Virus record (IMG/VR): IMGVR_UViG_3300036795_000241
Coordinates: 1 to 64,000 of that record
DNA: 64,000 nt
Source: a virus
Reading direction: 5' to 3' (one strand)
Positions 40,191 through 62,680 of the stretch are shown here, piece by piece. The first letter of the stretch is position 1. Every line of letters begins with the position of its first letter. The notes below the pieces were generated by a model, which ran no database searches, had not been told where the DNA came from, and was given only the letters and a program-made list of their open reading frames with translations. A program made the position numbers and the translations under genes.

Positions 40191-40316
40191 GGGTGAAATG
40201 GGCAGGCCAGGGTCCCAGTACTACATCGTATAAAGGTCCTGGCCTGCCCGACCTGCCCCGAAGGTATGCGACCATGTCAAATGACATGCCCCCACCATGA
40301 TCACTTCCTCAGGAGA
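40191..40316 (+). repeat. Conserved 126-nt hairpin element, copy 1
   Basis: Aligns with the reverse complement of 62556-62680; 15-bp stem with compensatory changes. Confidence 0.8.
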
Positions 40317-40484
40317 CTTTCGGTATGGGACAAGCTAGAAAGGATAAGCCGAAAATTTCATCCCGCGAAAGTATCCTGATTGAGCAGCAGGAGGAGCTAG
40401 CCAGGCGAAATGCGTGGCGAGAGCCAGTACGTGGAACCGTTGTTCGGTGACAAAGAAGCAAATATAACCACTTCCTAACAGGAC

Positions 40485-40513
40485 TTGACAGTGTGCCAGG
40501 TGGCGGGTAAACT
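40485..40513 (+). promoter_or_regulatory. Promoter of the candidate structured RNA
   Basis: TTGACA-17-TAAACT. Confidence 0.8.
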
Positions 40514-40520
40514 TGCTCCT

Positions 40521-40736
40521 GTGGACGGCAACCAGAAGCGTCGGAAGCGCTTTGACATCGGGGCAACTGGCGCTCGCACTTCCCCCCCAGGCGAGTGGCC
40601 GCCTTCGGGTCCGGTTTCCGTTCATGCACTATCGGCTCGGGGAGCTACTACCTAGTACGCGATCGTCCGGCGGAACCTTCTTCGCCCCCGTGAGAGGGAA
40701 CCCTGGACATCGTGAAAGGGTAGCTCCCCGAGCTGA
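40521..40736 (+). ncRNA. Candidate two-domain structured RNA
   Basis: Starts 7 nt after a consensus -10; 13-position and 17-bp closing stems with G-U pairs, a UUCG loop and a C7 loop. Confidence 0.65.
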
Positions 40737-40775
40737 CTTTATGCCTGCCGCTAAGCACGAGGGACGGACCGCGAC

Positions 40776-41702
40776 GTGGGACAAGACAGCTCGGGGAGCT
40801 ACTATCTCGGCAACGTACACCTGCAGACTGCACTCGGTGGCGCCGGCGGTAGCTACGCCGGTTCGAATATCGAACACGTGTACCACAAAACGGGCAACGA
40901 GGTTCGCGTAACGGATCCGCAGCTCGGTAAGTTCGCCATCTCCGCCGCCGCATATCAAGCGGTGCGCAACGCCGTCCTCCGTGAGCTAAGCGATAAGCTA
41001 CCGGCGCCTTTCGTTGGGCTGCTTAATGTAATGTCCGGCGAACAAGATCTCAACTTGACAGGCCGGGTAACTTCGGCTACACTGGAGGAAGATAAGCCAG
41101 TTGGCCGCGACGAGACGGAGGACGAGATGACACTGCGCAAACAGCCGATTACCCGCGAGGGAGCGGAGGCGCTGGCGCGGCGAGCCGCCGAGGAGCTGGC
41201 GTTCCTCGACCGGCTGGAGGACAAGTACGGCGCCGAGCCGCAGGACGGAGCGGTGATCCGGTTCACGAAGCAGTTCGCCTCACCGTCCTACGGTTACTCG
41301 GCACCGACATCACAGGTGGTCCGGTACACGTATGCCGGGATCCGCGCGAACGGGAAGTGGTACCTGACCGGCGCCAAAGGATCGCAGTCGTGGTCGTGGT
41401 TCGAGCTACTGAACTGGCTGGACGAGGGCGTTCCGGCGGAGCACTTTGTCGTCCTCTCCAGTGGCTTCGATCCGGATCCGGTCGACGTTACCGAGCGCAT
41501 TCTCGAGCACCGCGTCGTTTACGATGAGCCGGGTAGCGTTCCCGGAGGCGACATCGATGCGGCCACGACCGAATTCCACGATGCGGAATACGACATCATC
41601 TCCCGTGCGCACCCGCGCTTCACGCCGAATCAGATCGAGGCGTTTATCGCGGACGAGCACAACTGCGCTAAGTGCATTAGCATGCGGGAGGACGTCAAGT
41701 GA
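40776..41702 (+). CDS. Hypothetical protein with an internal promoter and start at 41127
   Basis: Single ORF; internal TTGACA-17-TACACT and GGAGGA-ATG. Confidence 0.6.
   Translation: MGQDSSGSYYLGNVHLQTALGGAGGSYAGSNIEHVYHKTGNEVRVTDPQLGKFAISAAAYQAVRNAVLRELSDKLPAPFVGLLNVMSGEQDLNLTGRVTSATLEEDKPVGRDETEDEMTLRKQPITREGAEALARRAAEELAFLDRLEDKYGAEPQDGAVIRFTKQFASPSYGYSAPTSQVVRYTYAGIRANGKWYLTGAKGSQSWSWFELLNWLDEGVPAEHFVVLSSGFDPDPVDVTERILEHRVVYDEPGSVPGGDIDAATTEFHDAEYDIISRAHPRFTPNQIEAFIADEHNCAKCISMREDVK
41055..41083 (+). promoter_or_regulatory. ORF-internal promoter
   Basis: TTGACA-17-TACACT. Confidence 0.75.
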
Positions 41703-46134: not shown

Positions 46135-46205
46135 GTCACCGGGTCCCCGAAAGCCGGATGCAGTGAAGTTAGTACGGGACCCGGTGGCTTGCTAAGGAGA
46201 AGCAA
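46135..46205 (+). promoter_or_regulatory. Structured 5' leader with a GAA/AGUA internal loop
   Basis: 13-bp stem 46135-46147/46176-46188; second small hairpin with the RBS in its loop. Confidence 0.6.
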
Positions 46206-46428: not shown

Positions 46429-47286
46429 ATGCCGCCAGTAGCTCCTCGAAGGGTGCGCCCAGCGCGCCGTGAAGCCGACCCGCCGCCAACGAATGGCGAT
46501 GGCGAAACACCGACTCCGCCAGTGCGGGAAGACCCGTGGTCGCCCGCCAGTTCGATGCGCGATATGCAGGGGCTGCTCCTCCTGCTATTCGGCTTTCCGG
46601 GCTGCGGTAAGACGACACTGGGCACGACCGTTACCCGTTCCGAACTCGGATCGCCACTTCTCGTCGTAAACTTCGATGAGGAAGTGCGGTCGATCGCGGA
46701 TCGCGACGACATCATGGTCTGGCCCGGCGTAAAGCAGGGCGGGAAAGTCGGTAGCTGGGATAAGGCGAACGCGTTTCTCACCCGGCTGCAGGGTCGCGAG
46801 CATCCGTTCAAGAGCATTATGTTCGACACGCTGAACCGCGCGGCGGAGCTCGCACTGCGTAAAGTTCGCGAAAGCGGTAACCCGAATCGTGACGGTCGGC
46901 AGATCTTCGGTGAAGCCAACGACATGGTGCTTCAGCTGGTCGAAACGTGGGCGACACTATCCCGTGAGCGCGGGATCAACGTCATCTTCACGTGTCACGC
47001 GAGGGAGGTGCAGGAAGGCGAGAACGGACCGGTATACATCCGGCCCGATGTCACTCCCGGAATCGTTCGCGGGCTGTACCAGAAGGTGTCGACTATCGGC
47101 TACCTGGAGGACGCGAGGACCAATCGTCCGCGCAAGCTGATTACGCACAATACGGCGCGCGTGGTGGCGAAGAACCATCAGCCACGAAGCGGACCGCAGG
47201 TGCCGACCGATATCAGCGACCCCGATCTCGGCAAGATTATCGATCACGTACGCCACGTTAAGCGGTATGCGGCGGCGGACGCATGA
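46429..47286 (+). CDS. AAA ATPase (Sak4-like recombinase family)
   Basis: GFPGCGKTT, IMFDTL and VIFTCH motifs; SSB-like and exonuclease genes in the same arm. Confidence 0.8.
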   Translation: MPPVAPRRVRPARREADPPPTNGDGETPTPPVREDPWSPASSMRDMQGLLLLLFGFPGCGKTTLGTTVTRSELGSPLLVVNFDEEVRSIADRDDIMVWPGVKQGGKVGSWDKANAFLTRLQGREHPFKSIMFDTLNRAAELALRKVRESGNPNRDGRQIFGEANDMVLQLVETWATLSRERGINVIFTCHAREVQEGENGPVYIRPDVTPGIVRGLYQKVSTIGYLEDARTNRPRKLITHNTARVVAKNHQPRSGPQVPTDISDPDLGKIIDHVRHVKRYAAADA

Positions 47287-47857
47287 CCGAGCCGGCTAAA
47301 GGGCGTCGTTGGTACCGACATCCGCGTCAGCAAGCAGCGGTAAAGCCGCCGGTTATCTTTCCGGACGTGATGTTCTACGGCCCGTATCTCGACTGCCACG
47401 ATACGTGGATCGGCATGTACTGGAAGCACGACGTGCAGGGCTGGGATGGTGGCTGGTGGGAGGGCTGGCGATTCTACCTAGTGCTCCTTCCCACGACGGT
47501 ATTGCGGATGGACGTGGATCGGTCCGGACGGGATACGCTAGCCTTCCGCCGGTGGAAACGGGAGACCGGACAGAATCCGCGTCCTAACTATCGGCGATGG
47601 AAGGCGTACGCATGATCATCCTCGATTGGCGCAAGAACGAAAAGCCGTGCGCCCATCCGTTCGAATCGCAGCGGCTTATCGCGATTCATCACTGGTTCCC
47701 GGAGGACGAAGACCTCGATCGTATTCCGAAGACATTCGTCCTCCGCCAGTGTGACAAGTGTCTCGAGCCGAACGTGCTCACGCTATTCGGTACGTGGGAT
47801 CTGGCGCAGCTGGATTCGCTGTCCCGTAAGGTATCTACCCGACTATAAGGAGAATCG

Positions 47858-48415
47858 ATGCCTGTTTCGACTTCCGCTCCCGAAGCTAAGCTCGGCTGGC
47901 TAAAGCCGGCGGACGTGATCGTATGTCGCACTGGCGGAATCGAAGCCGAGTTCATTCGCTTCGGTGCCGAACTCATCGACAAGCCGAACCTCGACAATCA
48001 CGTCGTGGTGGTCGATCACATCGATGCGGCCGGTACCGTGTGGGGTATCGAAGGTCGCCCCGGCGGCGTCGGATGGGTCGACTGTGCGAAGTACTTCGGT
48101 AACGGATACGCGCTCACGAATCGGCGCCAACCGAAGTCCGATGAACAGCGAGCTCACGTTACCGGAACGATGAAGAAGCTAGTCGGTACCGGTTACGACT
48201 GGCGCGCAATTATCGAGGATTGCGGTGACGACCTGCACATTCCCGATCCGTGGCGGGAGAAGTGGAACGGACTCGTACCGGGTCACGTGGTGTGCAGCTC
48301 CGGAGCCATCATCGGTTACTACGGTTCCGGCTTGCTTTATCCGACTGATATCGACATGGCGCATATCCAGCCCGCCGACTGGACCGCGTTCATTCTGCAG
48401 CACAGCTACGAATAG
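47858..48415 (+). CDS. Permuted papain-like (NlpC/P60, YiiX-type) protein
   Basis: PAD, NH, IEG.PGGV, G..YDW and VCSS in that order, i.e. His before Cys. Confidence 0.7.
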   Translation: MPVSTSAPEAKLGWLKPADVIVCRTGGIEAEFIRFGAELIDKPNLDNHVVVVDHIDAAGTVWGIEGRPGGVGWVDCAKYFGNGYALTNRRQPKSDEQRAHVTGTMKKLVGTGYDWRAIIEDCGDDLHIPDPWREKWNGLVPGHVVCSSGAIIGYYGSGLLYPTDIDMAHIQPADWTAFILQHSYE

Positions 48416-48424
48416 GAAGTAACG

Positions 48425-49570
48425 ATGGAAACCGCTCTCGCCGCCATATCCGCACTCTTCGTCCTGCTTACCGCGCTCTGCCTGTGGCTCATCCGCCAAG
48501 TGTGGCTACTGCGGTACCGTACGCCCGGTAAGCACGCTGTCGCTGTCGAGGTTAAGCCGGCACCGACCAACGATGAGCCGGACGTCAAGGACGCGCTGAT
48601 CGCTAAGCTCGAAGCGGACCTTCGTGACGCACGTAACGAAAGCCTCGCAATGGTTGGCGATCTAAGGCGACAGCTGGCCGAAGCGGACGCCAATGCGACG
48701 TTGCGGATTCAGCGTTCCGAAGCACTGGCGGAACGCCAGGCGGGTGAGCGGATTGCCGCGATTAGACAAGAATACACGGAGAGGCGACGAGCGGAGAATA
48801 AAGCGTCTAACGCTCGCTCACGTACCGCACTGGTTGCGAAAATCGGCGAGCACCTTGCACCGCTTTTCGAAGGCTTCAAGTATAACTTGAAAGATGTAAG
48901 ACACGTAGGCGAGATATTCGATTTCCTTGTCTTTGATGGACTCGAGGAAGGCGAAATTCGTCAGGTGGTCTTTCTCGAGGTAAAGACAAAGCGAAGTGGC
49001 GCACGAGTTACGAACCCGCGTGAGAAGATGCTACGGGATGCCGTTGAAAATGGTCGTGTGTCCTACGATATCTACGTACCGCCGGTTAATGGAAGCTTAG
49101 TTATGCGAACATGTAGCGTAGTACTTCCGGGCGGAGCGGACTGCCCCAAAAAGCATTACGCGCTAGGTTTCTGTCGTCCGCACTACTACCGAAAAAGGCG
49201 GTACGGAGATCCGGGCTTTATTCCGGATATCACGCAGGACGGTAATCCGAACTGGAGCGAAGTACCGGGATACCGCGCAAAGCACGGACGTGTGCGCAGA
49301 GCTTACGGAAAGGCTAGCGAATACGAATGCGAAAACTGCGAAAAGCAAGCTAGCGACTGGGCGATGCTGCATGATACGAACGGAGAAGATATCGATGACT
49401 TTATCCCGCTGTGTCGAAGCTGTCACTGCCTCTACGACGATATCGGAAGACACTGGCGCGTAAAGTCGCCACCGCATTGCTCAACGTGTACTTGCAGCAT
49501 AAACGGAGGAACTAATGGCCGACCCCGCCGGCGAAGCGTTCGCCCGGACGGTGACTCCACCGCAGATTGA
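48425..49570 (+). CDS. TM + coiled coil + Holliday-junction-resolvase-like endonuclease, fused to an HNH-type domain
   Basis: EHLAP, DFLVFDG and FLEVKT; then C..C, GFC.PHY, CENC and PLCRSCH. Confidence 0.75.
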   Translation: METALAAISALFVLLTALCLWLIRQVWLLRYRTPGKHAVAVEVKPAPTNDEPDVKDALIAKLEADLRDARNESLAMVGDLRRQLAEADANATLRIQRSEALAERQAGERIAAIRQEYTERRRAENKASNARSRTALVAKIGEHLAPLFEGFKYNLKDVRHVGEIFDFLVFDGLEEGEIRQVVFLEVKTKRSGARVTNPREKMLRDAVENGRVSYDIYVPPVNGSLVMRTCSVVLPGGADCPKKHYALGFCRPHYYRKRRYGDPGFIPDITQDGNPNWSEVPGYRAKHGRVRRAYGKASEYECENCEKQASDWAMLHDTNGEDIDDFIPLCRSCHCLYDDIGRHWRVKSPPHCSTCTCSINGGTNGRPRRRSVRPDGDSTAD

Positions 49571-49771
49571 CATTCCCAGTGTCCGGCCAGACGAAAACCT
49601 ATCGCCGCGGGAGCTTCTCGAAAGGGCGGTCTTCGAATCGCTCGGTCGCGCCTCGGTGTGCTGGGAGGACTTCCCGTCCGGGGTGTTCCTCGCGGAGCAG
49701 GCGAAGGCGGTTGGCGAAAACTTGCTCGAATGCATTGACGCGTTCGTGCAGCACAAACTTCAGGGTAGCGG

Positions 49772-49801
49772 TTGACAGTTTGCGACTGGCTATGCTATAC
49801 T
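49772..49801 (+). promoter_or_regulatory. Promoter of the SSB-like gene
   Basis: TTGACA-18-TATACT. Confidence 0.8.
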
Positions 49802-49859
49802 GGAGGTTCAATTAGAGGCCGATCGCGCCTCAAAGCGATCACGTAGAAAGGACAGGCAG

Positions 49860-50264
49860 ATGCCCGTTCAGGTAGACCTCACCGGCGTTTCCGTTGAAGG
49901 CCCCACTCCGCTGGAGCCGGACACGTATGACGCAGTTATCACGAAGGCGGACATTCATCCGTCCAAGTCCTCGCAGAACGACACGCTGTACCTCGAGATA
50001 GCGGTCGGTGAGGAAGGGCGCAATCTCCGCTGGAACTGCTCCGTGGCGGGGGACTCGCTGTGGCGCTTCAAGAAGCTGCTGGTGCGACTCGGATTCGAAA
50101 TCCCGGAAGGGCCCTTCGAGTTCGACGAGAAGGAACTGATCGGCGCCGAATGCCAGGTCAAGGTCAGCCTCGAGCCGCACTACCAGGACCCGTCCCGCAA
50201 GACGAACAAGATCACCGCCGTTCTCGGCCCGGACGGCGAAGAAGGTGAGGGTTCCTGGGGCTAG
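49860..50264 (+). CDS. Phage single-stranded DNA-binding protein (DUF669-like)
   Basis: PLEPDTYDAVI, SKSS and ELIG..C.V.V; acidic tail; own promoter. Confidence 0.75.
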   Translation: MPVQVDLTGVSVEGPTPLEPDTYDAVITKADIHPSKSSQNDTLYLEIAVGEEGRNLRWNCSVAGDSLWRFKKLLVRLGFEIPEGPFEFDEKELIGAECQVKVSLEPHYQDPSRKTNKITAVLGPDGEEGEGSWG

Positions 50265-50265
50265 C

Positions 50266-50343
50266 TTAGCTTCCCGCCGAAAGGCGGGGAGGCTGGGGGC
50301 GGGCCGGCACCTCCTCTCACAAGTTGCGAGTCGGTCCGCCTCC
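50266..50343 (+). terminator. Tandem hairpins after the SSB gene; the second displays an anti-RBS loop
   Basis: GAAA-capped stem 50266-50296; 14-bp stem 50295-50308/50330-50343. Confidence 0.7.
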
Positions 50344-52025: not shown

Positions 52026-52603
52026 TGCTCGATAAGAACGTCGCCGAAATGGAATCGGCTGTCGGCTGGCTTCTCGATCAGCTCGGTTACGACCGAACGA
52101 CCCAGCACTTCACCCGCACGCCGCAACGCGTAGCGAGAATGCTTTCCGAGTACGCGAAGAACGGTAGCGCGGATCGGGTGCGTGAGCTGCTCGGCGTTAC
52201 GTTCATCGAACCCGGTGCGGTCTCGTCACTGGTCCTCGAAGGTCCGGTGGACTACGTCTCGATGTGCGCGCACCACATGCTCCCCGTAACCGGTACCGCC
52301 TGGATCGGTTATCTCCCCGCAAAGGCGGTATGCGGACTCTCGAAACTGGCGCGCGTGGTCGATCACTATGCGCATCAGCTAGGCGTACAGGAAGTGATCA
52401 CGCAGCAGATAGCGGATGCACTGGTGGAACACCTCGAACCGATGGGCGCAATGGTCGTGGTCCGGGCACAGCACGGCTGCATGTCCACCCGTGGCGTAAG
52501 GCAGCCGCAAGCGTTTACGACCACTTCGGCGGTCCGCGGCGCGTTTAAGGAAAGTGCGGCCGCCCGCAACGAGTTCCTCCAGCTGATGCAAACGAAGGGC
52601 TAA
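52025..52603 (+). CDS. folE: GTP cyclohydrolase I
   Basis: TP.RVA, SMCAHHMLP, GLSKLAR, QE and HGCM..RGV motifs. Confidence 0.95.
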   Translation: MLDKNVAEMESAVGWLLDQLGYDRTTQHFTRTPQRVARMLSEYAKNGSADRVRELLGVTFIEPGAVSSLVLEGPVDYVSMCAHHMLPVTGTAWIGYLPAKAVCGLSKLARVVDHYAHQLGVQEVITQQIADALVEHLEPMGAMVVVRAQHGCMSTRGVRQPQAFTTTSAVRGAFKESAAARNEFLQLMQTKG

Positions 52604-52609
52604 GGTAGC

Positions 52610-53428
52610 GTGAAGCTTGCGCACATCGTGCCAATCACGATGCTTACTGCGGTCCCGCGAACCGCGTCGGCGCACCTAACGATTACGAATCTCGTGCTTA
52701 GCTGTCCGCGCTATCAGCGATTCTATCGTAAGCGAGCGCACGCGGGTGACCTAGTCATTCTCGACAATCCCGTCCACGAGAATCAGCCAATCGATATCGG
52801 TAGCTGGCTCGAGGCAATCTCGATGCTCGAACCGACGGTGGCGATTGTCCCGGACGTAATTGACGATATCCCGATGACGGTAAACCTCGCGCGGCACGCG
52901 GCGGGAATCGTATCCTCGCGGAAAGCAATCCTCCCGCAACCGGAGCTAATGGCGGTTCCGCATGGTCACACGCATGAAGAGTTCTACCAGTGCGCCGCTG
53001 AGCTGATCAAGATTCCCGGGATAACGTGGCTCGGGATTACCCTGGAACGGCGATTGAACGATGATCAACTCGCGCTAAAGCGTAGGCGTGAACGGCTGCG
53101 GATGCTCTCGTACGACCCGCTATTCTCGGGTACGAAGATCCACCTTCTCGGCGTTTCCGAGACCGCGGAGGAGCTCGGTGACGATTCCGTATGGGAACGC
53201 GCGGTCAGCTGCGACACTTCGAAGTTCGCCGTATGGGCGCTTACCCGCAATCCGGTTGCGCCACCGGTTCCGCTTAGCACACCGTATCCCGGTCGCGAGA
53301 TATTCGGCGGGAGCTACAATTACTACTGGGCGCACGGTTTGTCGTGGCCGGACCGGCGAAAGTTCACGCAGAATCTCGCCGAATGGTCGCGCTATGCCCA
53401 GCGATACGACAGGAGCACGAACGAGTAA
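52610..53428 (+). CDS. TGT-like TIM-barrel protein, candidate DNA 7-deazaguanine transglycosylase (divergent DpdA)
   Basis: ILDN, VPDV, MAVPHG, IHLLG and SCDTS mirror TGT/DpdA motifs; embedded between folE and queC. Confidence 0.7.
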   Translation: MKLAHIVPITMLTAVPRTASAHLTITNLVLSCPRYQRFYRKRAHAGDLVILDNPVHENQPIDIGSWLEAISMLEPTVAIVPDVIDDIPMTVNLARHAAGIVSSRKAILPQPELMAVPHGHTHEEFYQCAAELIKIPGITWLGITLERRLNDDQLALKRRRERLRMLSYDPLFSGTKIHLLGVSETAEELGDDSVWERAVSCDTSKFAVWALTRNPVAPPVPLSTPYPGREIFGGSYNYYWAHGLSWPDRRKFTQNLAEWSRYAQRYDRSTNE

Positions 53429-54780
53429 TGTCTGGAATCTTTGCGGCGATGGTGCATAGCCAGAGCGTGCCCTCGGCGCCACTTGAGCGGCTGGTCAAGG
53501 GTTCGCAGAAGCGCGGTAACGATGGCGTTAGTGTCGTAACGCTTAATCGGTCGTTTAGCCGCGTTTCGCGGAATCGCACATGGTACGACGTTAACGCGAA
53601 AACGGGCCGCGGAGTATTCCCGCCGGGCGTGTATGGCGTTCTCGGGTGTGCGTATTCCCGTCCCGCCGCGGGTGACCACGTTGCGCCGCCGTTCATCAAT
53701 CGCGCTAGCTCGTGGTGCGTAACGGTCGATGGGGCAATTACGAACTGGTACGGACAGCAGCTTGCCGAACGGCTCCTCGTTGACGAGTACGAGGACTGGA
53801 CCGAATTCGTCGAGGACCTCGAAGGTCAGTTCGCGATTGTCGCGATGCATCGTGACGACCCACGTACGCTGTATTACGGCTGCAAGGCTAAGCCGCTCTA
53901 CATGCTTTACGACCCGATCATGCACGCCGTTTACATCGCACAGCAGCCGGAGTACTTCTACGGGATGTACGATGAGTCGCGGACTCCCCGTCCAGTGCGG
54001 CTGGGCCCGTATTCCTGCGGCGAAATCGCAGCCGATGGAAAGGTCCGTCCGGCGCATCCGTTGCGACACCGTTACGGCTCCGGTTCGCTGATGCTTTGCG
54101 GTGGCGGTCTCGACAGCACCGTAGCCGCGTGGGATAATGCGCAAACGTATGCCGATGACACGCTGCTAATGTACGTCGATTACGGAGCGCGGGCGCGCGT
54201 GAAGGAGTGGCACGCGACGCAGTCACTGGCGGCCGCAATGGCCAGCCCGCACAGCGGATTGGTCGGCTCCACTGAAGCGGTAAAGGTGCCCTTCGATTTC
54301 TTTCGTAAGCATGTCGCCTCGCCACTGTTTCCGGGTGGCAAACCGGTATCTGAGCACCCTCAGCCCGGACAGGCTACGGAGTGGGTACCGGCACGGAATA
54401 CCGTACTAATGGCACTGGCGGTGTCGTTTGCTGAATCTAACGGTCTGGCGCGGATCGTGACCGGGATCAATATGGAAGCGGCTGCCGCGTATCCGGATAA
54501 CGAAGAAGAATGGCACCGTCGCTGGGAGCAGCTGCTACCGTATGCGGTAGGCGATGGCGCACAGATCGACCTGGAATCACCGCTTCGCGGTATGTCGAAA
54601 GCGGACATCGTAAGGCTCGGTGAGACGCTAAAGGTACCGTGGGGCACGGTCGATAGCTGGTCCTGCTATAACGGCGGGAAGAATCACTGTGGCCAGTGCT
54701 CCAGCTGCCGAGCTCGTCGTGGCGCATTCGTCCGCGCGCAGATTCCGGACGTTACGCGATACACCAGGGAGCCGAAATGA
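53428..54780 (+). CDS. queC: Gat-QueC fusion with a degenerate class II glutamine amidotransferase domain
   Basis: N-terminal MSGIF, EGQFA; QueC part GGGLDS, DYG, VPARN, YPD and SCY..HCGQCSSC..R. Confidence 0.9.
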   Translation: MSGIFAAMVHSQSVPSAPLERLVKGSQKRGNDGVSVVTLNRSFSRVSRNRTWYDVNAKTGRGVFPPGVYGVLGCAYSRPAAGDHVAPPFINRASSWCVTVDGAITNWYGQQLAERLLVDEYEDWTEFVEDLEGQFAIVAMHRDDPRTLYYGCKAKPLYMLYDPIMHAVYIAQQPEYFYGMYDESRTPRPVRLGPYSCGEIAADGKVRPAHPLRHRYGSGSLMLCGGGLDSTVAAWDNAQTYADDTLLMYVDYGARARVKEWHATQSLAAAMASPHSGLVGSTEAVKVPFDFFRKHVASPLFPGGKPVSEHPQPGQATEWVPARNTVLMALAVSFAESNGLARIVTGINMEAAAAYPDNEEEWHRRWEQLLPYAVGDGAQIDLESPLRGMSKADIVRLGETLKVPWGTVDSWSCYNGGKNHCGQCSSCRARRGAFVRAQIPDVTRYTREPK

Positions 54781-55359
54781 CCGAACCGCCGCCGATGAGC
54801 CAAGAGTCCGCTCAGCGAGTACAGGAGGTAATGAAAGAGGTCATTCAAACGAACGACGCAATGCCCGGGAAGTACGTTATCTTCGTTACCGCGGATGTCG
54901 TACCGGACGACCCGCAGGCGATTGTCGAATGGGAATGGTACTGGCGTCCGATAAATCGACATGCAGGCGGCGGTTAATGCAAGCGGAACTGGTCCCGGTA
55001 ATCGTACGCGTTCAATTCACGTGCGGGAATCACCTGACGCCACTCAAGCCGAATCTTATGCGACTTGAGTACCGATGTCCAATGCGCGGTTGCGACACAC
55101 TGCTACGAAAGGAAGAACTGCACCGCTGGAACTTGCACTTTACGAACGCCTTTCCCGAGGTAATCGTCACTGGACGGAAGGAGACGTTATGCCGCTCGGA
55201 ATCTGCCAGCCGTGTCAGGACGGAGCGACCGAGATGCTACTGGGCAATACCGAATTCGCTACCCGCCTGCACGAGCAGTGCCCCGGCGGTACGTGGTGTC
55301 TATGCCACCATAGCGTAAGTGGCTCCGCGATGTCGGAGCAGGATCAGCTACGACGCAAC

Positions 55360-55388
55360 TTGACAATCCGGGATACCCCGGCTATACT
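55360..55388 (+). promoter_or_regulatory. Promoter of the NDT-polymerase operon
   Basis: TTGACA-17-TATACT. Confidence 0.8.
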
Positions 55389-55397
55389 TGAGGAACC

Positions 55398-55763
55398 ATG
55401 ACCACGGAGCGCATTTACATCTCGCACCACACGGAGAAGCTGCTCATTCCGTTCAAGCAGCAGCTCGAAGCACTCGGCTACGAAGTGACCAGCAACTTCG
55501 ACAGCGAAGATCTGGTCGAGCACGTTAGCGACATTCGCGAAAGCGATGTCTTCGTGCTGTTCTTGGTCGGGCACGGTGCCCAGCTCAATCGTACCGTCGA
55601 ATTCGGTATCGCAATCGGTCTCGAGAAGGTGCTCGTGTGCATCGGTGACGCCTACGAGAAGGACTACCCCGGACGGTCGTTCGTGAATCACTACCGCACC
55701 ACCGAGCAGTTCCTCGCGGCATGGCGTACCGGTGAGCCGGAGTCGGGACTGGTCAGTGCGTAA
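55398..55763 (+). CDS. Nucleoside 2-deoxyribosyltransferase-like protein
   Basis: IYIS, DIRESD and VEFGIAIGL.K motifs; own promoter; coupled to the polymerase. Confidence 0.65.
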   Translation: MTTERIYISHHTEKLLIPFKQQLEALGYEVTSNFDSEDLVEHVSDIRESDVFVLFLVGHGAQLNRTVEFGIAIGLEKVLVCIGDAYEKDYPGRSFVNHYRTTEQFLAAWRTGEPESGLVSA

Positions 55764-58290
55764 ACGCGCTACCGCAGCATCCTGCGCGGACTGCCCCGAG
55801 GAGGGACCTGTCTGCGTTGGCGGATTCGGACCGGAGAAAGCGCGGCTGGTCATTGTCGGTGAGGCACCGGGTCACGACGAGTGCCTCACCGGCCGTCCGT
55901 TCATCGGGAAAAGCGGTCAGCTGCTTAACGCCACGCTGCAGAGCTACGGGATTAAGCGAACCGAGTGCTTCGCCACTAACTCCGTAATGTGCGCCGTTAA
56001 GCCGGGAACGCGGCACCATAACGCCTGCTGGTCGCGGTTGAAGTCCGAGATCCTTTCGCGCGAGCCCGAGATCGTGTTGACACTGGGCAAGGCCGCCTTT
56101 TCGGCGGTATGTCGCACTCGCACGCCACTATCGAAGACCGATGGAACGTTGTGGTGGCAACCGGATTTCGGCGTGTACGTAATGCCGACGTGGCATCCCG
56201 CTGCCGTACTTCGCGGTGGCGCCGATGACAAGTTCTTCCCGATGATCTCGAATGCGATATGGCGCATTTCCCGGCTACTGGACGGACGGGATAAGTTCCC
56301 CGATCCGAATGGTCAGCCGGGATACAAGTGGACGTTCTTCCGCACCGCCGAAGGAACGATTCGGTGTGCGAAGTACTACCTGCGGAAAGCCGATTCCTCG
56401 CCAGTGCCATACGTGATCTCGGTCGACACCGAATCGCGGTCCCCGGGTAAGCGTCCGCATCCGGAGCAGGACCTATGGCTCATGCTGCAGTTCTACGATG
56501 GCGATCGTGCCGCGGCAATCGACATGATCACGAATCAGACGCCAGAATCGTTGCGCTGGCTAATGAAGCTAATCCGGCATCCGAATGTCGAATGGGTCGG
56601 ACATAACATTGCGACATACGACACCCGGGTGTTCCGGCATAACCTCGGGAAAGGCGTGCGGGATAGTAGTATCCGCGACACGCTGATCTACGGACTCGGA
56701 TTGAGTGAGCGCGCCAACGCGGTTGGCTTGGAGCCACTGGCCCGAACGTGGCTAGGTGCCCCCGCGTACAAGCGCGGTCTCGCTGAATCGGGCTATCGGC
56801 ACGCGAAGGGTCCGCAGAACGAGCTGCAGTGGAAGCAGCTGGCGAAGTATGGCGTGGACGATGTCTATAACACGTACGAGCTCAACCGTATTCTGCCTAC
56901 GCTGGTCCGCGATGAGGGTACCGAAGATCTCGTCAACAATATCATCTTGCCGCTAGCACTTACGTGCGGTAAGCTAAGCGGACGCGGGTTCCCGATTGAC
57001 CTCGAGCAAGGAAAGCGACTCGAGGAGCTTTGGGGCGGACGCGTTGACGATACGGTTCATCGGCTACAGGAGCTAGCGATAAGCTCCGGGTGGCCAAAGG
57101 ATCCGAATAACGCTAAGGCGAAAGACGGTCGACTCAACCCGCGAAGCCATTTGCAACTGGCGCATTTCGCTCTCGACTGCCTCGGTCTTGCGCCGACCGA
57201 TGGCGCGACAAACCGTAAATATAGCGGAACCGCGAAGAATCTGCACGGTCGCTCGCGGTCAATTGACGCCGACTTTCTCGTCGGACATCAGGACACCGAA
57301 TTCGGACAGCTGATGACGCTGCTGCGGGTATACGATAAGCAAGTGCGCACGTATGTCCGCGGTATTCTGAAAGAGCTCGACCCCGATGGCTTGATTCACC
57401 CGTCATTCGATATTGCGGGTACCGCGACCGGGCGCCTCGTGATTAAGCCGCTGCTGCAGGTGCTCCCGCACTATGGTGCGCATGCGCAACTCGAGGAAGA
57501 GGACATCGCAAAGGAAGTGCGGAGGCTATTCCCCGCGCGCAAGGGCTATGTCATCGTTACGGCGGACTACAAGCAGCTGGAGTTCCGGGTCGCGTGGATG
57601 CTGTCCGGGGACCAGAAACTGGGCCATGCCCTTACCTCCGGTGATATGCACGCGAAAACGGCTGCGTACATGTTTAAGCGTGACGAAAGCATCGTGACCA
57701 AGGCCGACCGGCATGCGGCCAAGCGGGTGTCCTTCGGTACCGCATACTGGCGCTCCGCGTACACACTGGCGAAGGGTCCCCTGCTCGAGGTGCTCGGTGG
57801 GATTACGATACCCGAAGGCGTGCGAATCGCCCGAGCGCAGCGGTTCATCGACGACTTCCGGGCGCTGTATTCCGATTACTATGCGTGGCAGCTGGAATCG
57901 GCGGATAGTGCCGTGCGTAACGGTGAACTGTCCACGGTATTCGGTCGCAAACGTCGCTGGCCACTGATCACGCACGACAACCGCGAAGAGATCCGCCGGC
58001 AAGGCGTGAACTATCCGATCCAGTCCACCGCCAGTGATATGTGCTCCAGTGCCCTCGTTCGACTAGCCGATGTGCTGCCGAAACGCAAGCTCGGATTCCC
58101 GCTATACACCGTGCATGACGAGGTCGTTAGCGAGATCCGCGAAGACCGCCTTGACGAAGGAATTGCCGCGATCGCGGAGGTGATGTCGAACCCAGCTATC
58201 GACACTAACGGGGCCGTGTTTCCCGTGGACGCTTCGTACGGTCCGAATCTCGGCGATCTTACGGGATACCAAATAAAGGTAGCAGCGTGA
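55756..58290 (+). CDS. Family A DNA polymerase with N-terminal family-4 uracil-DNA-glycosylase and 3'-5' exonuclease domains
   Basis: UDG: CADCP, VGEAPG..E...G.PF.G.SG, WHPA. Exonuclease: DTE, HN...YD, Y..DD. Polymerase: TGRL, ADYKQLEFR, R..AK...FG..Y, VHDE. Confidence 0.95.
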   Translation: MRKRATAASCADCPEEGPVCVGGFGPEKARLVIVGEAPGHDECLTGRPFIGKSGQLLNATLQSYGIKRTECFATNSVMCAVKPGTRHHNACWSRLKSEILSREPEIVLTLGKAAFSAVCRTRTPLSKTDGTLWWQPDFGVYVMPTWHPAAVLRGGADDKFFPMISNAIWRISRLLDGRDKFPDPNGQPGYKWTFFRTAEGTIRCAKYYLRKADSSPVPYVISVDTESRSPGKRPHPEQDLWLMLQFYDGDRAAAIDMITNQTPESLRWLMKLIRHPNVEWVGHNIATYDTRVFRHNLGKGVRDSSIRDTLIYGLGLSERANAVGLEPLARTWLGAPAYKRGLAESGYRHAKGPQNELQWKQLAKYGVDDVYNTYELNRILPTLVRDEGTEDLVNNIILPLALTCGKLSGRGFPIDLEQGKRLEELWGGRVDDTVHRLQELAISSGWPKDPNNAKAKDGRLNPRSHLQLAHFALDCLGLAPTDGATNRKYSGTAKNLHGRSRSIDADFLVGHQDTEFGQLMTLLRVYDKQVRTYVRGILKELDPDGLIHPSFDIAGTATGRLVIKPLLQVLPHYGAHAQLEEEDIAKEVRRLFPARKGYVIVTADYKQLEFRVAWMLSGDQKLGHALTSGDMHAKTAAYMFKRDESIVTKADRHAAKRVSFGTAYWRSAYTLAKGPLLEVLGGITIPEGVRIARAQRFIDDFRALYSDYYAWQLESADSAVRNGELSTVFGRKRRWPLITHDNREEIRRQGVNYPIQSTASDMCSSALVRLADVLPKRKLGFPLYTVHDEVVSEIREDRLDEGIAAIAEVMSNPAIDTNGAVFPVDASYGPNLGDLTGYQIKVAA

Positions 58291-58895
58291 TTATCTCGCC
58301 ACTGAAGCTCGTAATCAGTGCGCTGGCGGCCATTACCGCCGCAATTGTCGGAAGCTTTTTCGGGGATCAAGGAACACTAATCGGTGTCGCCACCGGCAGC
58401 GTTGTCTCGGGTGCCGCCGCGGGAGTATATGAGCATGTCGCCTCGAAAACGAAAGGAGTGATCAAGTTTGCCCCGCAGTACCGAAAGCTGCCACTGGCTG
58501 AACGACAGAAGTTGCTAAAGCGAATCGCAATTGCGTCCGGGGCCAGTGTCCTCGCTATCGGAACCGTTTCCGCCGCCGTAGTCGTCATCCCCGAGTTGGC
58601 CAGTGGGCGGACGCTACATAGCCTGACCACGGGAAAGGTGGACTACGGATCATCGTTCGGGAGCAGTTCGACGGTATCTCCGGCCCCAGTGCCAACGATC
58701 CGGTACACCCCGAGCGCAACGCCAAGCGTTACCGGAGGTACGCAATCAGCAGTACCGACAAGCCCAGTGACGCCTTCGCCGAGCTTCTCCGCGACATCCC
58801 CTTCGTCCGTGTCGCCGACCTCGGCCCCGCCGATTATACCTTCGTCCCTCTCGTCGCCACAAGCGACACCACTGGAAGGAACGCCGACCCCATGA
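58287..58895 (+). CDS. Membrane protein with a Ser/Thr/Pro-rich tail
   Basis: Hydrophobic segments followed by an S/T/P low-complexity C-terminus. Confidence 0.7.
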   Translation: MIISPLKLVISALAAITAAIVGSFFGDQGTLIGVATGSVVSGAAAGVYEHVASKTKGVIKFAPQYRKLPLAERQKLLKRIAIASGASVLAIGTVSAAVVVIPELASGRTLHSLTTGKVDYGSSFGSSSTVSPAPVPTIRYTPSATPSVTGGTQSAVPTSPVTPSPSFSATSPSSVSPTSAPPIIPSSLSSPQATPLEGTPTP

Positions 58896-59479
58896 TCGAC
58901 ACAGTTGAACTCGAGATCCCGGTTCATCTGGCCCCGGCAATAGCGATTCTCGTTAAGACCGCCGTGCAGAAAGGAAGCGACTACGCACGTGACGAGTGGA
59001 GCAGCAACTTCTCCGATACCGCCGACCACTTCGGCATCCCGCGTTACGAATCGTGCGACTTCAACGAGATTCAGAAGCTCGCACGGCTGAAGAGCCTTCG
59101 TACCGGCCGAAAGGTGCTCAACGAGTCCGTCGAAGACACGTACCGGGACAAGGCGCTTTACGCCATTCTCGCATACGTGCTGTATCTCGAAGAAGTGGCA
59201 GCTAGGCGCGGGGCCGAGAACGAAGAGAAGATGAGTGGCTTCCTCTATACCGAGGCGCCAAGCGAGTCCGTACTGGACGGGGAGCTCCCGTCCCGCGCGC
59301 AGGTGTCCACGCATATGCCGATCGAAGGTGACGGGGTCGACGCCTGGCTTCAGCGGATTCGTGGCGACTTCGATACCGATTCACCGCAGTACGCGCTGCT
59401 TACCGAGATGATGGCGAAGTATCAGCGGCGTGCGGAGGAGGGTAAGTCCCTTTCGGAACCGGTTATATATCCGACTTGA
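58892..59479 (+). CDS. Nucleotide-modification-associated domain protein (Nmad1/DUF1599-like)
   Basis: K..DY..NF..K..R..ES..D...D...YA.L pattern. Confidence 0.65.
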   Translation: MIDTVELEIPVHLAPAIAILVKTAVQKGSDYARDEWSSNFSDTADHFGIPRYESCDFNEIQKLARLKSLRTGRKVLNESVEDTYRDKALYAILAYVLYLEEVAARRGAENEEKMSGFLYTEAPSESVLDGELPSRAQVSTHMPIEGDGVDAWLQRIRGDFDTDSPQYALLTEMMAKYQRRAEEGKSLSEPVIYPT

Positions 59480-59505: not shown

Positions 59506-59522
59506 GGATGCTGTGAGAGGAG

Positions 59523-60251
59523 GTGGTCAAGGTGGCCGCAGATAACGCACTTGACCGCATTCAGAAGCTCCTGGCGAAGGCAGAGAGCCCCGCAGTTACG
59601 GAGCAAGAGGCCGAGTCCTTTCGGGACAAGGCCTTTGAGCTGGCTGCGAAGTACCGGATTGACCACGCTGAGCTTAAGGCGAAGGGCCAGGCGCCCTCGG
59701 AGAAGATCGTGAACCGGCGAATGCACGTGTCCCGCCCGTTTACGCAGATGATGCGCCTGGCCCTTATCGTGTTCGAGTCGAACGATTGTTCGCTCATCCG
59801 CATCAGCGGGACCAAGGACACGATACACGCATTCGGATACGAGAACGACATGGCGAAGGCCGAATTGCTGTTCACCTCGTTGCTGGTGCAGGGTGCCCGG
59901 TGGTGCGCACAGGACTACCGCGAGTACCGGTACGAAAGCGAGGAGCGGCGTTCGACATTCCGGCGAGGGTGGTGGACCGGATATGCGAACAAAGTGTACA
60001 AGCGACTGCAGGCAATTCAGCAGCGTGCGGAGAGCGAATCCGCCACACCCGGGACGGCAATCGTTCTGCGGGACCGCAAGCAGGACACGAATACCGCGAT
60101 GGTCAACCACTACTCCGGAGCGATCAGCCGCGGTCGGCGGACTAAGGGCGTGTCCAGTCACGGTGGATACCGAAGGGGATCGGAAGCCGGTGACCGGGCC
60201 GACCTGGGTGGGACGCGGATGGGGCCCTCCGCCCGCGGTGAGCTGGGCTGA
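59523..60251 (+). CDS. DUF2786 family protein
   Basis: RIQKLLAKAE..EA....KA..L..KY.ID N-terminus; own promoter. Confidence 0.85.
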   Translation: MVKVAADNALDRIQKLLAKAESPAVTEQEAESFRDKAFELAAKYRIDHAELKAKGQAPSEKIVNRRMHVSRPFTQMMRLALIVFESNDCSLIRISGTKDTIHAFGYENDMAKAELLFTSLLVQGARWCAQDYREYRYESEERRSTFRRGWWTGYANKVYKRLQAIQQRAESESATPGTAIVLRDRKQDTNTAMVNHYSGAISRGRRTKGVSSHGGYRRGSEAGDRADLGGTRMGPSARGELG

Positions 60252-60259
60252 TACCCCGC

Positions 60260-60288
60260 TTGACAGTCGCGGGAGGATCTGCTATACT
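60260..60288 (+). promoter_or_regulatory. Housekeeping-sigma promoter
   Basis: TTGACA-17-TATACT. Confidence 0.8.
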
Positions 60289-60749
60289 GGGTCCTGTGAG
60301 AGGAGCAGGGTCAGCCAGGGTGGCAGGACCCAACCGCGACATGGCAACAGTTCTCGGGACCAGGAACGCCGATGGAAGCGTCCAGATCGAGCGCGTGCTC
60401 ACCCCGACCGAGGTCAAGAGCCGGCGGGGAAGTGTGAGCGAGAAGCGCGTTACCAGGTACCAGCAGGGCCGTGGCCGTCGGACCCGGAGCGTGTACCAGG
60501 CAAGGGCACTGGGTTCCGGTCAGGGAGTGCTAGCCGCTCAGGACGCCGTGTTCACCGACAGCCCGCAGATCGACGAGTACCGGAGCGGGTTCCGGACCGC
60601 ATGAGCGAATACCACGAGGTGCCCGGCACATTCCGATGTGCCGGGTGCGGGCGGGAGCACGCCAGCCACACCCCGCCGGTACAGATTGACTTCGAGCTTT
60701 ACGCACCCGAGTGCGTTCCTGACAACTCCACCGCGACGGAGGGATAGCA

Positions 60750-61139
60750 ATGGCACGAAGGACGGTTGTGCGCCGAAAGGCCACCGGAAGCGTTACCGCA
60801 CGGACCGCGGCCAGGCGCGCGGCGCGGAGACAGACCGAAACGATCCAGGTCCGCGCGGCCCGGCGGGTTGGCGGTGATGAGCCGGAAAGCGTTACGCAGG
60901 CCCGCACGTGGGACCGCAAGTACCGCCGGTATCTCGTGGCCGGGCTGTGCCACCCGTGCGCCGCAAAGGCATCGTGGGGCCATTCGCTCGGATTCCAGAA
61001 GATCGATGACCCGTGCGCCAAGTGCCAGCCGATCGTGAACCAGTTCGCGACCCCCGGCCCCGAGGGTTCGAAGTGGCGTAAGGTCCTCGACAAGCTCGAG
61101 CGAAGCGTTACCCGTGAAGAGATGGAGGCGCTGCTTTGA
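60750..61139 (+). CDS. Basic Cys-containing hypothetical protein
   Basis: GGAGG RBS; CHPC and CAKC. Confidence 0.6.
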   Translation: MARRTVVRRKATGSVTARTAARRAARRQTETIQVRAARRVGGDEPESVTQARTWDRKYRRYLVAGLCHPCAAKASWGHSLGFQKIDDPCAKCQPIVNQFATPGPEGSKWRKVLDKLERSVTREEMEALL

Positions 61140-61842
61140 AGCTCGCAGAACCGGCGGGTAAGCGCGGTGACCGAGTGCGTAACGTGCATAGCAATCGCAC
61201 GGCAACCGTGGAGCGCGTATCCGCGAACACGACATTCGTTATCTACGATGACGAACCCGGCGTAGAATACGGCGGAACGCATAGTGCGTTTGAACCGCTT
61301 TCGCCGAAGTAGGAGGAGCCGCACCGCGCCCCGGTCCGCCGGGGCTTCCGGTGTCTCCGAAGGTAACGGGCTACACCCCGCCGCGCTACCTACGCGAAAC
61401 ACGTCGCCCGATCCGTGTCCGAAGTGCGGTGCACTGGCGAACGAGCCATGCACGTACACGCAGGACCGCACGCAGATTCACCGCGATCCCGCCACGTGGG
61501 ATTACGTGTGGAACGAGGGCGGTAAGCCGATGCAAATCATGCACCACGAACGACGGAGGAAAGCTATGACCGGATGCCCCGACCCGACGCCACGCCCGGA
61601 GGACGGACAGACGTACACCGATTATGTCCTTCGCACGACCGGGAAGCCGGCGGACGCGGATCTCGTTACGCCGCCGAACGACTCGGAAACGACAACGCGA
61701 CAGAAGGACAGCATCGCACACCAGCTAGTCGAACTCAGTTTCGACCCGCCGGCGTGGTTCGTAGCTAGCGCGTACCTGTCCGACCTAAAGGCGCTGCTCC
61801 GTTACGTCCAGCGGGCTCACCTGCGCAAGGAGGCAGCGGAGA

Positions 61843-62334
61843 ATGCTCGATAGCCGCGATCCCGCCTGGATCTTCGACATCGATGGCACGCTAGCGCATA
61901 ACCGCAGCGGACGTAACATCGTCGACTATACACGCGTTAGCGAGGACGAGCCCGACGAAGCGGTGTTCCGGATCTGCCAAGCCCTCGTCGACAAAGGCGA
62001 CACCGCGCTGTTCGTTACCGGTCGTGAGGACACGGAGCAGTGTCGACGCGATACCGAGCAGTTCCTGTACCTGAACCTCGACGTATTCGCGCTCGATCTC
62101 AGTCCGTATCTCTATATGCGCCCGGCAACCGAAAAGGATCGCTTCCGTAAAGGCGCCGAGCTCAAGCTCGAGATCTACCGCACGCAGATCGAACCGAAGT
62201 ACCGCGTTTTCGGCGTATTCGAAGATCTACCTACCGTGGTACACATGTGGCGCGAAGAGGCCGGGCTGTCCGTCTTCCAGTGCGCCTCAGTTCCTGAGCT
62301 CACTCCGGAGGAGGCGGCTAAGCGTGGACGATAG
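61843..62334 (+). CDS. HAD phosphatase (PNKP 3'-phosphatase-like)
   Basis: FDIDGTLA, VTGR, LYMRP, K and FED motifs. Confidence 0.85.
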   Translation: MLDSRDPAWIFDIDGTLAHNRSGRNIVDYTRVSEDEPDEAVFRICQALVDKGDTALFVTGREDTEQCRRDTEQFLYLNLDVFALDLSPYLYMRPATEKDRFRKGAELKLEIYRTQIEPKYRVFGVFEDLPTVVHMWREEAGLSVFQCASVPELTPEEAAKRGR

Positions 62335-62555
62335 CACATTCGGCGAATACGTACCGGGAAAAGGCGGCGGCTCGATTTCGTACAACGTGCAAGGGCTCCC
62401 CGACGGTCTCCCAGCCGGTACCTATGCGACCCGGGTGCTCAACGCACGATGGGTCGTGCGACGCGACGGCGTTCTCGACTGGGTTGTCGAGATGGAATTT
62501 GTCGGACCGGCAAAAGATGACGAGCCGTGTCTGTTTCCCTTGATCAAGACCGACG

Positions 62556-62680
62556 TGTCCGGAGGGAGTGATCATGGTGAGTGATGGCCATTCCACCAGG
62601 TTCTCATTTTAACCCGGCCTAGGGCATCCCAGGACCGGATGGCTATGTAGTATGCTGGCCCTGGGATGCCCATTTGACCC
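62556..62680 (-). repeat. Conserved 125-nt hairpin element, copy 2
   Basis: Inverted homologue of 40191-40316, at the point where + and - strand genes converge. Confidence 0.8.

Follow-up and report, generated by a model that had tools for sequence, protein, structure and literature searches.

What is the role of a non-coding module that a phage carries twice, in opposite orientations, at the two edges of its replication genes? The window (the whole stretch of DNA that was analysed, 64,000 nucleotides) belongs to a soil phage genome of 75,683 bp, in which a module of about 125-145 bases is found in two inverted copies. The copies are 22.4 kb apart, one per edge of a 22-kb block of replication, recombination and 7-deazaguanine modification genes. 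The block is served by sigma70-type promoters of its own, beginning with that at 40485, and more than 20 near-identical early promoters of this type are present in the genome. The phage encodes a primase-helicase, g68, and a family A DNA polymerase and has its own iteron origin. Two copies only were found in the whole genome by BLAST (E 4e-4), with a covariance model and by motif scan.

As the preliminary description had proposed, the copies lie at operon ends, each beginning 3-8 nt after the stop codon of the final gene of a unit in its own orientation (Table 1). The genes around copy 1 are all on the + strand, and the early/middle unit that ends in g72 has promoters at 38547 and 38992. Copy 2 marks the convergence point of the early and late operons, where g109 and g110 are separated by a 98-nt gap. 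Family searches with g72, g73, g110 and g111 gave no informative match; g109 is a genuine gene, with family members of 57-86 aa.

Table 1. Features of the two copies and of their neighbourhood (positions in the window).
Feature	Position	Strand	Remarks
g72	39722-40183	+	Ends the + strand unit that precedes copy 1; TGA 40181-40183
Copy 1 5' block	40191-40199	+	GGGTGAAAT; 8/9 identical to copy 2; other strand: ATTTCACCC just past the hairpin
Copy 1 hairpin	40200-40249	+	15-bp stem, two G.U on the + strand, 20-nt loop
Copy 1 stem arms	5' arm 40200-40214; 3' arm 40235-40249	+	
Copy 1 loop	40215-40234	+	20 nt; TACTACAT at 40219-40226
Copy 1 spacer	40250-40292	+	43 nt; about 40% identity to copy 2 spacer
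Copy 1 3' block	40293-40317	+	CACCATGATCACTTCCTCAGGAGAC
Promoter, sigma70-type	40485-40513	+	TTGACA-N17-TAAACT; 235 nt past the copy 1 hairpin; restarts + transcription
g109	62324-62584	+	Last + strand gene; variable C-terminal tail inside copy 2
Copy 2 3' block	62555-62579	-	CACCATGATCACTCCCTCCGGACAC
Copy 2 spacer	62580-62621	-	42 nt
Copy 2 hairpin	62622-62671	-	15-bp stem, one G.U on the - strand, 20-nt loop; inside the g109/g110 gap
Copy 2 stem arms	5' arm 62671-62657; 3' arm 62636-62622	-	
Copy 2 loop	62656-62637	-	20 nt; TACTACAT at 62652-62645
Copy 2 5' block	62672-62680	-	GGGTCAAAT; begins 3 nt past the g110 stop
g110	62683-62895	-	Last gene of the late operon (structural and lysis genes); G001, a relative, has a homolog; TAA 62685-62683

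A structured element with compensatory changes in its stem had been reported at these two loci, and this was borne out. All of the stem pairs (15/15) are standard in both copies, and two of them are altered on both sides (G-C/C-G versus U-A/G-C). Elsewhere in the stem one U.G is replaced by C-G, and one G.U is common to both copies. The true register was 100% paired, against at most 60% when the arms were slid, so the pairing is specific; a stem shuffle control gave 116/500, in a comparison of two sequences only that puts significance out of reach. The two hairpins are among only four intergenic perfect stems of at least 10 bp in the genome; that of copy 2 folds on both strands, with AAAT/ATTT on one flank. 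A lower-stem extension resembling an RNase III site was considered and rejected: GGGU and a downstream GCC can be paired in both copies, in registers that differ and with no support from covariation.

Conservation between the copies is a mosaic, with 80-89% identity in the 5' block, stem, loop core and 3' block and about 40% in the spacer and loop flanks (spacer 40% versus 3' block 88%; joint permutation P about 1e-5). About 75 of the 125 positions are conserved beside saturated divergence elsewhere, and beyond the 3' block weak similarity continues for about 18 nt more, to 40334 and 62539 (96/145 identical overall). Within the copy 1 spacer, a palindrome (CATGTC-AAAT-GACATG) and a short motif common to the relative G001 were noted.

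The 3' block had been called anti-SD-like. It proved instead to be the exact reverse complement of an SD, 8 nt and ATG GTG, and is an initiation region on the other strand, not an anti-SD device in its own right. At copy 1 the - strand reads SD GAGGAAG, 8 nt and ATG GTG and opens a mini-ORF of 25 codons (40298 to 40221), for which the stop is a TAG in the loop; that strand has no gene for the initiation region to serve. At copy 2 the + strand reads SD GGAGG, 8 nt and ATG (62574), at the head of a 12-codon mini-ORF, and the block covers the last 9 codons of g109, the tail of which is V-S-G-G-S-D-H-G-E-stop. Neither the initiation region on the other strand nor the overlap with g109 had been noticed in the preliminary description. 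Read in the g109 frame, 7/9 third-codon positions are identical, and protein-level constraint alone is therefore insufficient to explain the block. The complement of the block is similar to the sequences around the starts of g61 and g103. Of 26 unrelated exact occurrences of the block in public DNA, 14 have an ORF of at least 50 aa that begins at the ATG. No promoter was found within the block on either strand. A g109 pseudogene at copy 1 was sought and rejected: the family HMM matches g109 only, with no relic there, and tblastn gave KVS*GSDHG only. On the + strand of copy 1, the AGGAGA of the block is a possible SD for a candidate ORFan, g73 (40325-40450); if g73, which is without a promoter of its own, is real, transcription must read through the copy 1 hairpin.

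Searches for the element elsewhere agree with its having been described as an unfamiliar structured RNA or ssDNA signal. Nothing in Rfam reached the gathering threshold, and at E <=10 the search gave noise of the miRNA-precursor type (8-21 bits versus thresholds of 34-100). No homolog was detected among the INPHARED phages with blastn in 'distant' mode. In IMG/VR, exact-pattern scans returned chance matches only, and a single-protein scan with the helicase and polynucleotide kinase returned nothing. In JGI metagenomes the helicase scan was empty and the 5' pattern gave two chance matches; in GTDB genomes the 3' block gave 22 chance matches, none with the hairpin. Among Logan/ENA contigs the closest helicase relatives were P0002, with 65%, and P0003 and P0004, each with about 60%. 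The covariance model, run on 1.17 Mb of loci from other relatives and on five complete related records, had no match. A lack of conservation in related phages had been named as an outcome that would count against the element; taken literally this is the outcome, in relatives that, at 54-59% helicase identity, are too distant to be decisive.

A GC-rich hairpin directly 3' of a stop codon is a feature of intrinsic terminators, and the element has it. Canonical intrinsic terminators also need a loop of 3-8 nt and at least five U within 8 nt of the stem, whereas the element has a loop of 20 nt and, behind the stem, no U-tract on its own strand and just UUU on the other; a consensus terminator scan called neither copy. 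Other gene-end hairpins of the phage are likewise without U-tracts, so the absence at the element is not unusual in this phage. A terminator, one option raised in the preliminary description, fits both the position of the copies and the gene-end hairpins of relatives. In G001 a hairpin with a 15-bp stem and a 32-nt loop stands right after the late operon, at the convergence point, and the stem base GGGCAGGC/GCCTGCCC is common to it and the element. The same relative has a hairpin of 16-bp stem and 34-nt loop, followed by TTGACA-N17-TATACT, about 1 kb upstream of the helicase, and a cassette in G002 runs from a stop codon through a 13-bp hairpin and 46 nt to a promoter. These are different long-stem hairpins at comparable gene-end positions, not this element.

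The reading that we prefer, with a likelihood a little below even, is that the element may be a duplicated transcript-end or insulator hairpin cassette bounding the 22-kb replication block. RNA polymerase would come from g72 (+, early/middle) or g110 (-, end of the late operon) and transcribe GGGUNAAAU and next the GC-rich 15-bp hairpin, which would end the transcript or pause the polymerase and protect the 3' end. Facing outward-in, the copies would insulate the block from transcription entering at either edge. The copy 2 palindrome might also close the converging + unit after g109, where AUUU follows on the + strand. The pair could have originated by an intragenomic inverted duplication of a segment with a gene end, an initiation region and a hairpin. 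The positions of the copies, the pairing and its compensatory changes, the mosaic conservation and the nature of the 3' block as an initiation region are shown; activity in termination or insulation, and the direction of the duplication, are what we infer from two paralogous copies. A plain terminator does not explain the nucleotide-level mosaic or the fixed 42/43-nt spacing to the 3' block; there is more fixed sequence than a simple terminator needs, and a sequence-specific RNA or protein role is therefore possible. Were the preferred reading true, the phage would bound a whole functional module with two inward-facing copies of one transcript-end cassette, and such cassettes could be duplicated along with the translation-initiation region beside them. 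The unusually strict conservation of the loop 8-mer, of the flanks and of the spacing would then help to find a factor that reads operon ends in an uncultured group of soil phages, and the element would be a compact insulator part for synthetic biology.

Comparable cassettes are known. In T4-type phages repeated stem-loop regulatory cassettes act as terminators (PMC2839356), and PeSLs (promoter-early stem-loops) are proposed to serve as module insulators and as homology for shuffling (PMC2839356; PMC4122927). The element is like a PeSL in being a repeated intergenic cassette of about 100 bp, conserved in sequence, placed after a stop codon and composed of a stem-loop and an SD/start element; the PeSL stem-loop is a terminator or attenuator, and this phage, too, has its set of early promoters. 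A PeSL, however, has stem-loop, promoter, SD and ATG on one strand in one cassette, with many copies flanking ORFans. The element, in contrast, is present in two inverted copies with no promoter inside (the nearest lies beyond the copy 1 hairpin; Table 1), its SD/ATG-like block is on the strand opposite to that of the incoming transcript, and its loop is large, with an invariant 8-mer; it is not a one-strand unit of about 100 bp repeated by small ORFans in hyperplastic regions, as PeSLs are.

Phage terminators between convergent genes can work in both directions, and copy 2 resembles T50 of the Pseudomonas phage LUZ7 in being a GC-rich palindrome in a short convergent gap (PMC10204088). Of the two copies, only copy 2 lies between convergent genes (g109/g110). 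Canonical bidirectional terminators have a small loop with an A-tract and a U-tract on both sides, whereas the element has a 20-nt loop and AAAT on one side only, with three A/T on one flank and none opposite, and no upstream A-tract with a downstream U-tract was found. The phage terminators of that study (PMC10204088) have no conserved sequence in common; the two copies here do. Phage lambda carries nutL and nutR in opposite orientations, each with a short conserved linear box and a hairpin whose loop is conserved, with a variable spacer between them, and these act on the transcribing polymerase; they are near the operon start and have stems of 5 bp. The element is like them in architecture only, with no sequence similarity, and no N-like protein was identified in the phage.

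Other roles were weighed against the preferred cassette. The likeness of the 3' block to the starts of g61 and g103 could reflect riboregulation, which we consider unlikely: the block (CCAUGAUCACUYCCUC), carried in the 3' UTRs of the g70-g72 unit and the late operon, would pair with the SD and start of both genes and turn translation off, while the hairpin would stabilise or present the RNA, possibly with a protein on the UACUACAU loop. For both copies the two best predicted targets out of 125 start regions are g103, at -30.4 and -28.1 kcal/mol, and g61, at -27.3 and -32.7, energies reached by 0/100 composition-matched shuffles; the mosaic conservation and fixed spacing point to a function at the nucleotide level, and the G.U pairs speak for the strand of the element itself. 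The complementarity is nevertheless equally explained by homology, the block being, on the other strand, a paralogous initiation region. The layout is opposite to that of the usual sRNAs, in that the hairpin precedes the seed and no terminator follows, the copy 2 block is constrained anyway as g109 coding sequence, and the searches made found no conservation beyond this genome. If this antisense reading is true, a translational shut-off borne by the 3' UTR is added to phage gene timing. Rather unlikely, in our estimate, is a new kind of boundary RNA module, acting in cis and trans, in which a phage or host factor would read the UACUACAU loop and its flanks and the antisense 3' block would silence g61, g103 and the start site at the g109 end; it would tie transcript-end formation at both block edges to translational shut-off. 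The opposite strand, to which we assign a low probability as the functional one, would offer a strong SD and ATG, about 16 free codons, a 12-bp hairpin and AUUU, either as an attenuator-like, ribosome-loading mini-ORF coupled with a terminator or as the relic of a small gene cassette with a terminator, and would close transcription that leaves the block, from g109 at copy 2 and of a lost or antisense transcript at copy 1. The conserved parts are exactly those needed for this (SD, spacing, ATG GTG), start and hairpin are separated by 48 or 49 nt, the inside of the ORF can vary freely, and a conserved stem is followed by ATTTNACCC; where the block occurs in unrelated DNA it is for the most part a genuine gene start, and the copy 2 start and the g109 stop overlap in the manner of translationally coupled genes. 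Yet the mini-ORFs, of 25 and 12 codons, encode unrelated peptides and stop at different places, the loop UAG is in frame in copy 1 only, no - strand gene, g109-family relic or promoter was found upstream of copy 1, and the shared G.U pair becomes an A.C mismatch.

It is improbable that the copies are a neutral relic, in which one inverted duplication carried a convergent-terminator region to the g72 end and the patchiness came from uneven decay or local replacement, not from a function of copy 1. Such an origin would suit the presence of two copies only, conserved in no other searched genome, and the fact that the copy 1 block, when read in the g109 frame, is broken by a frameshift and a stop; both double changes in the stem preserve pairing, however, and neither an alternation of conserved and variable parts on a 10-25-nt scale nor a kept spacer length is expected from neutral decay. 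We regard as very improbable a signal at the DNA level, whether an ssDNA hairpin for priming or nicking or a pair of inverted recombinase sites that flip 40.3-62.5 kb; priming and recombination had been suggested. The copies are inverted and on opposite strands, each would, when a fork enters the block, be exposed on the lagging-strand template, and the 3' block has short palindromes (TGATCA, TCCNGGA). The dso of pMV158, a rolling-circle nick site, has a hairpin loop with TACTAC and then a purine, as does the element, and the loop TACTACA presumably resembles the RepB nick sequence TACTACG. The phage is nonetheless without a cognate HUH Rep: Rep_OBD (PF01719) and Phage_GPA (PF05840) had no match in six frames, while control genomes matched. 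The origin iterons GGACACGGTT are unrelated to the element, and the link to the origin once seen in TACTACAT at 38312 comes down to one 8-mer beside an iteron, at chance level (three matches versus 0.5 expected, both copies included). A likeness of the hairpin top to 'iteron + CTACAT' (11-13/17 positions) was also judged to be chance. Inversion lost ground as well, with no recombinase among the larger annotated genes of the block and, in an independent assembly, collinear contigs with no strand-changing joint at copy 2; these contigs come from the one sequencing run in which the sequence was found, a DNA run probably of the source sample, and show one orientation, with any minor forms hidden by the contigs. 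No RNA run was found to contain the sequence.

Two further observations concern single loci. A third hairpin (46137-46186), also of 50 nt in total, was set aside; it is located in a 5' leader after the promoter at 46097, with unrelated flanks. Near copy 1, the 3' block is repeated in part at 40464-40486, with 17/23 positions matching, and this repeat adjoins the -35 of the 40485 promoter.

The preliminary description of both copies, one on each strand, was borne out and the coordinates of each sub-part were verified: a 5′ block, a 15-bp stem with a 20-nt loop around an 8-nt core, a spacer of 42 or 43 nt and a 3′ block. The genome (75,683 bp) holds only two copies of the element, which matched no Rfam family. 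The stem is compensatory, as described: 15/15 pairs are standard in both copies and two adjacent pairs are changed on both sides; one further pair is changed from U·G to C-G, and one G·U is common to both copies. When the partner strand was slid by 1–3 columns as a register control, pairing fell from 100% to 20–60%; a shuffle test gave 116/500, two sequences being too few for it to reach significance. The palindrome folds on either strand, with 15 bp including G·U on the element's own strand against 12 perfect bp on the other.

Identity between the copies was mosaic (joint permutation P ~ 1e-5): 8/9 in the 5′ block, 12/15 and 13/15 in the arms, 8/8 in the loop core and 22/25 in the 3′ block, against 40–47% in the loop flanks, spacer and tail. 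This alternation at a scale of 10–25 nt, together with the kept spacer length, speaks for constraint on both copies at the nucleotide level and against the even decay of a duplicate. A third 5′-arm-like sequence, GGGCCGGCCAGGGCT, which agrees with the copy 1 arm plus its preceding T at 13/16 positions, is found 14 nt upstream of the 5′ arm of copy 2 (28 nt start to start), so that the arm is tandemly echoed in the last codons of g110. A hairpin of the same overall size as the copies and of unrelated sequence (50 nt; 11-bp stem, 28-nt loop) begins about 10 nt past the predicted start of promoter 46097, in the leader of the unit of the Sak4-like gene.

The gene layout of the IMG/VR record (G+C 59.6%), of which the window covers bases 1–64,000, was obtained from our rough gene call and PHROG scans. 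Many of the sigma70-type promoters on the + arm are followed by a conserved leader, GCTGTGAGAGGAGG, and their number suggests that the early/middle arm is split into many short units driven by the host polymerase. Several promoters have the motif (C)GCCACACC(C) 20–45 nt upstream, a short way 3′ of stop codons.

Features of the phage record (positions in the window, or in kb of the record)
Feature	Position	Strand	Remarks
Structural operon	3.9-18.4 kb	-	rough gene call and PHROG scans
Long arm	18.6-62.6 kb	+	rough gene call and PHROG scans
Sigma70-type promoters (23 or more, nearly identical)	18528-60288	+	TTGACA-N17-TAGACT/TATACT
(C)GCCACACC(C) sites	28520-29500, 38920, 60660		gaps g47/48, g49/50, g51/52, g69/70, g104/105
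Primase-helicase g68	36100-38277	+	
Iteron origin	38290-38545		after g68
Copy 1	40191-40317	+	hairpin 40200-40249
ATAACCACTTCCTAACAGGACTT	40464-40486		
Near-consensus promoter	40485-40513	+	
50-nt hairpin	46137-46186		
7-deazaguanine DNA-modification cluster	50751-54780	+	QueD-like, QueE-like, GTP cyclohydrolase, unassigned 272-aa protein, GAT-QueC
Dda-like helicase g75, Sak4-like annealing protein, SSB-like protein, family A DNA polymerase g100, polynucleotide kinase g108		+	also on the long arm
3′-block match at g103 start	59517-59534		
g109	62324-62584	+	86 aa, ORFan-looking
Copy 2	62555-62680	-	hairpin 62622-62671
GGGCCGGCCAGGGCT	62685-62699	-	
Tail and lysis genes	75.7-62.7 kb	-	continuation of structural operon; includes endolysin g112

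Copy 1 starts 8 nt past the g72 stop, inside a 590-nt gap, and a promoter 235 nt past its hairpin is predicted to restart + strand transcription. Copy 2 starts 3 nt past the stop codon of the final late gene, g110, and occupies the 98-nt gap between g110 and g109, the last + strand gene, which it overlaps by 28 nt. With this placement each copy faces a polymerase about to enter the 22-kb replication/modification block from outside. The 3′ block of copy 1 is partially repeated (17/23) as ATAACCACTTCCTAACAGGACTT, which adjoins the −35 box of the promoter after copy 1; no other promoter has such a sequence upstream.

Helicase homologs (54–65% identity) were found on contigs of 67–76 kb. The relatives read were two near-complete IMG/VR phages, G001 and G002, and several fragments; the element was absent from all of them. 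Both G001 and G002 carry long-stem hairpins at comparable places. At the convergence point of G001, immediately 3′ of the late operon, lies a hairpin (15-bp stem, 32-nt loop) that has the same stem base as copy 1, GGGCAGGC/GCCTGCCC; a second G001 hairpin (16-bp stem, 34-nt loop), about 1 kb upstream of the helicase, has TTGACA-N17-TATACT after it. The G002 cassette consists of a stop codon, a 13-bp hairpin, 46 nt and a promoter. The short motif CCTGCCCG..CCCCGAAGGTA.GC occurs both in the spacer of copy 1 and at the syntenic position of G001, at marginal significance (E 0.04). This pattern supports reading the hairpins of this phage group as operon-end or insulator elements, the sequence duplication being specific to the lineage of the present phage.

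The most economical reading, held tentatively and at somewhat less than an even chance, is a duplicated operon-end hairpin cassette, each mechanistic step of which we infer: transcription would end or be insulated at each edge of the replication block, and the cassette would have been duplicated together with the neighbouring translation-initiation region. A plain terminator does not account for the unvarying 8-mer of the loop, the conservation of the flanks or the constant spacing, and a sequence-specific RNA role (an antisense 3′ block or a factor-binding loop), unlikely as it is, keeps a real share of probability for that reason. For both 3′ blocks the best predicted pairing partners are the start regions of g103 and g61 (matched by 0/100 shuffled blocks); this prediction fits antisense targeting and homology within a family of similar initiation regions alike. 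A mini-ORF plus terminator read on the opposite strand appears a little less probable again. On that strand the 3′ block reads as SD (GAGGAAG or GGAGGGAG), 8 nt and ATG GTG, in the same orientation as all unrelated exact matches (IMG/VR, GTDB genomes and the window's g103 start), and the ATG opens an ORF of at least 50 aa in 14/26 unrelated exact matches. The ATGs of the two copies begin mini-ORFs, 25 codons long in copy 1 and 12 in copy 2, whose peptides are unrelated.

Gene g109 is real: a full HMMER scan returned a family of 57–86-aa proteins with a conserved core ending ...CLFPLIK. The codons of its variable tail, TDVSGGSDHGE, lie in the complement of the 3′ block of copy 2. Copy 1 reads V-S-stop-G-S-D-H-G-G in the same frame, after a frameshift; a g109-family relic was looked for beside copy 1 and not found. 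Third-codon positions in the tail frame are identical between copies at 7/9 sites beside a saturated spacer, so protein-level selection alone is insufficient to explain the 3′ block.

Among published concepts, two come nearest: the terminator/promoter cassettes of T4-type phages known as PeSLs (PMC2839356, PMC4122927), and the bidirectional terminators that phages place between convergent genes (PMC10204088). The element departs from PeSLs in strand arrangement and copy number and from the bidirectional terminators in loop size and U-tracts, all defining features, and was therefore classed as a variant, not a member. U-tracts are also missing at other gene-end hairpins of this genome.

A resemblance of the TACTAC loop to a nick site failed its test, and an HUH nick site was rejected, since no HUH Rep gene to use the loop was found in the genome. 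The suggested recombination or inversion of the block found no support: no recombinase was found among its larger annotated genes, and an independent Logan assembly of a soil metagenome run (the only run with this sequence, and probably the source sample) was collinear across copy 2. One 20.7-kb Logan contig, judged by its coordinates, spans copy 1 as well, and no strand-changing joint was present in the Logan contigs of that run. Short contigs of the same soil run (X1) are ~80–85% identical to conserved block genes (window 46654-59103; records 2-4), so diverged relatives co-occur in the sample; these contigs are too short for either copy.

The proposed link of TACTACAT to the origin reduced to a lone 8-mer beside an iteron. 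The same 8-mer is common to the hairpin loops and to a perfect 36-nt tandem direct repeat starting GTACTACATTGACAGAG (intergenic, G001 locus L158, 13160-13236), probably by chance. The g109-family module (core ..PDDLPPG.Y.TRV...GP....LFP..K) also occurs as 4–27 tandem stretches in giant proteins of 800–3100 aa, as in protein P0124 (2733 aa, 27 stretches).
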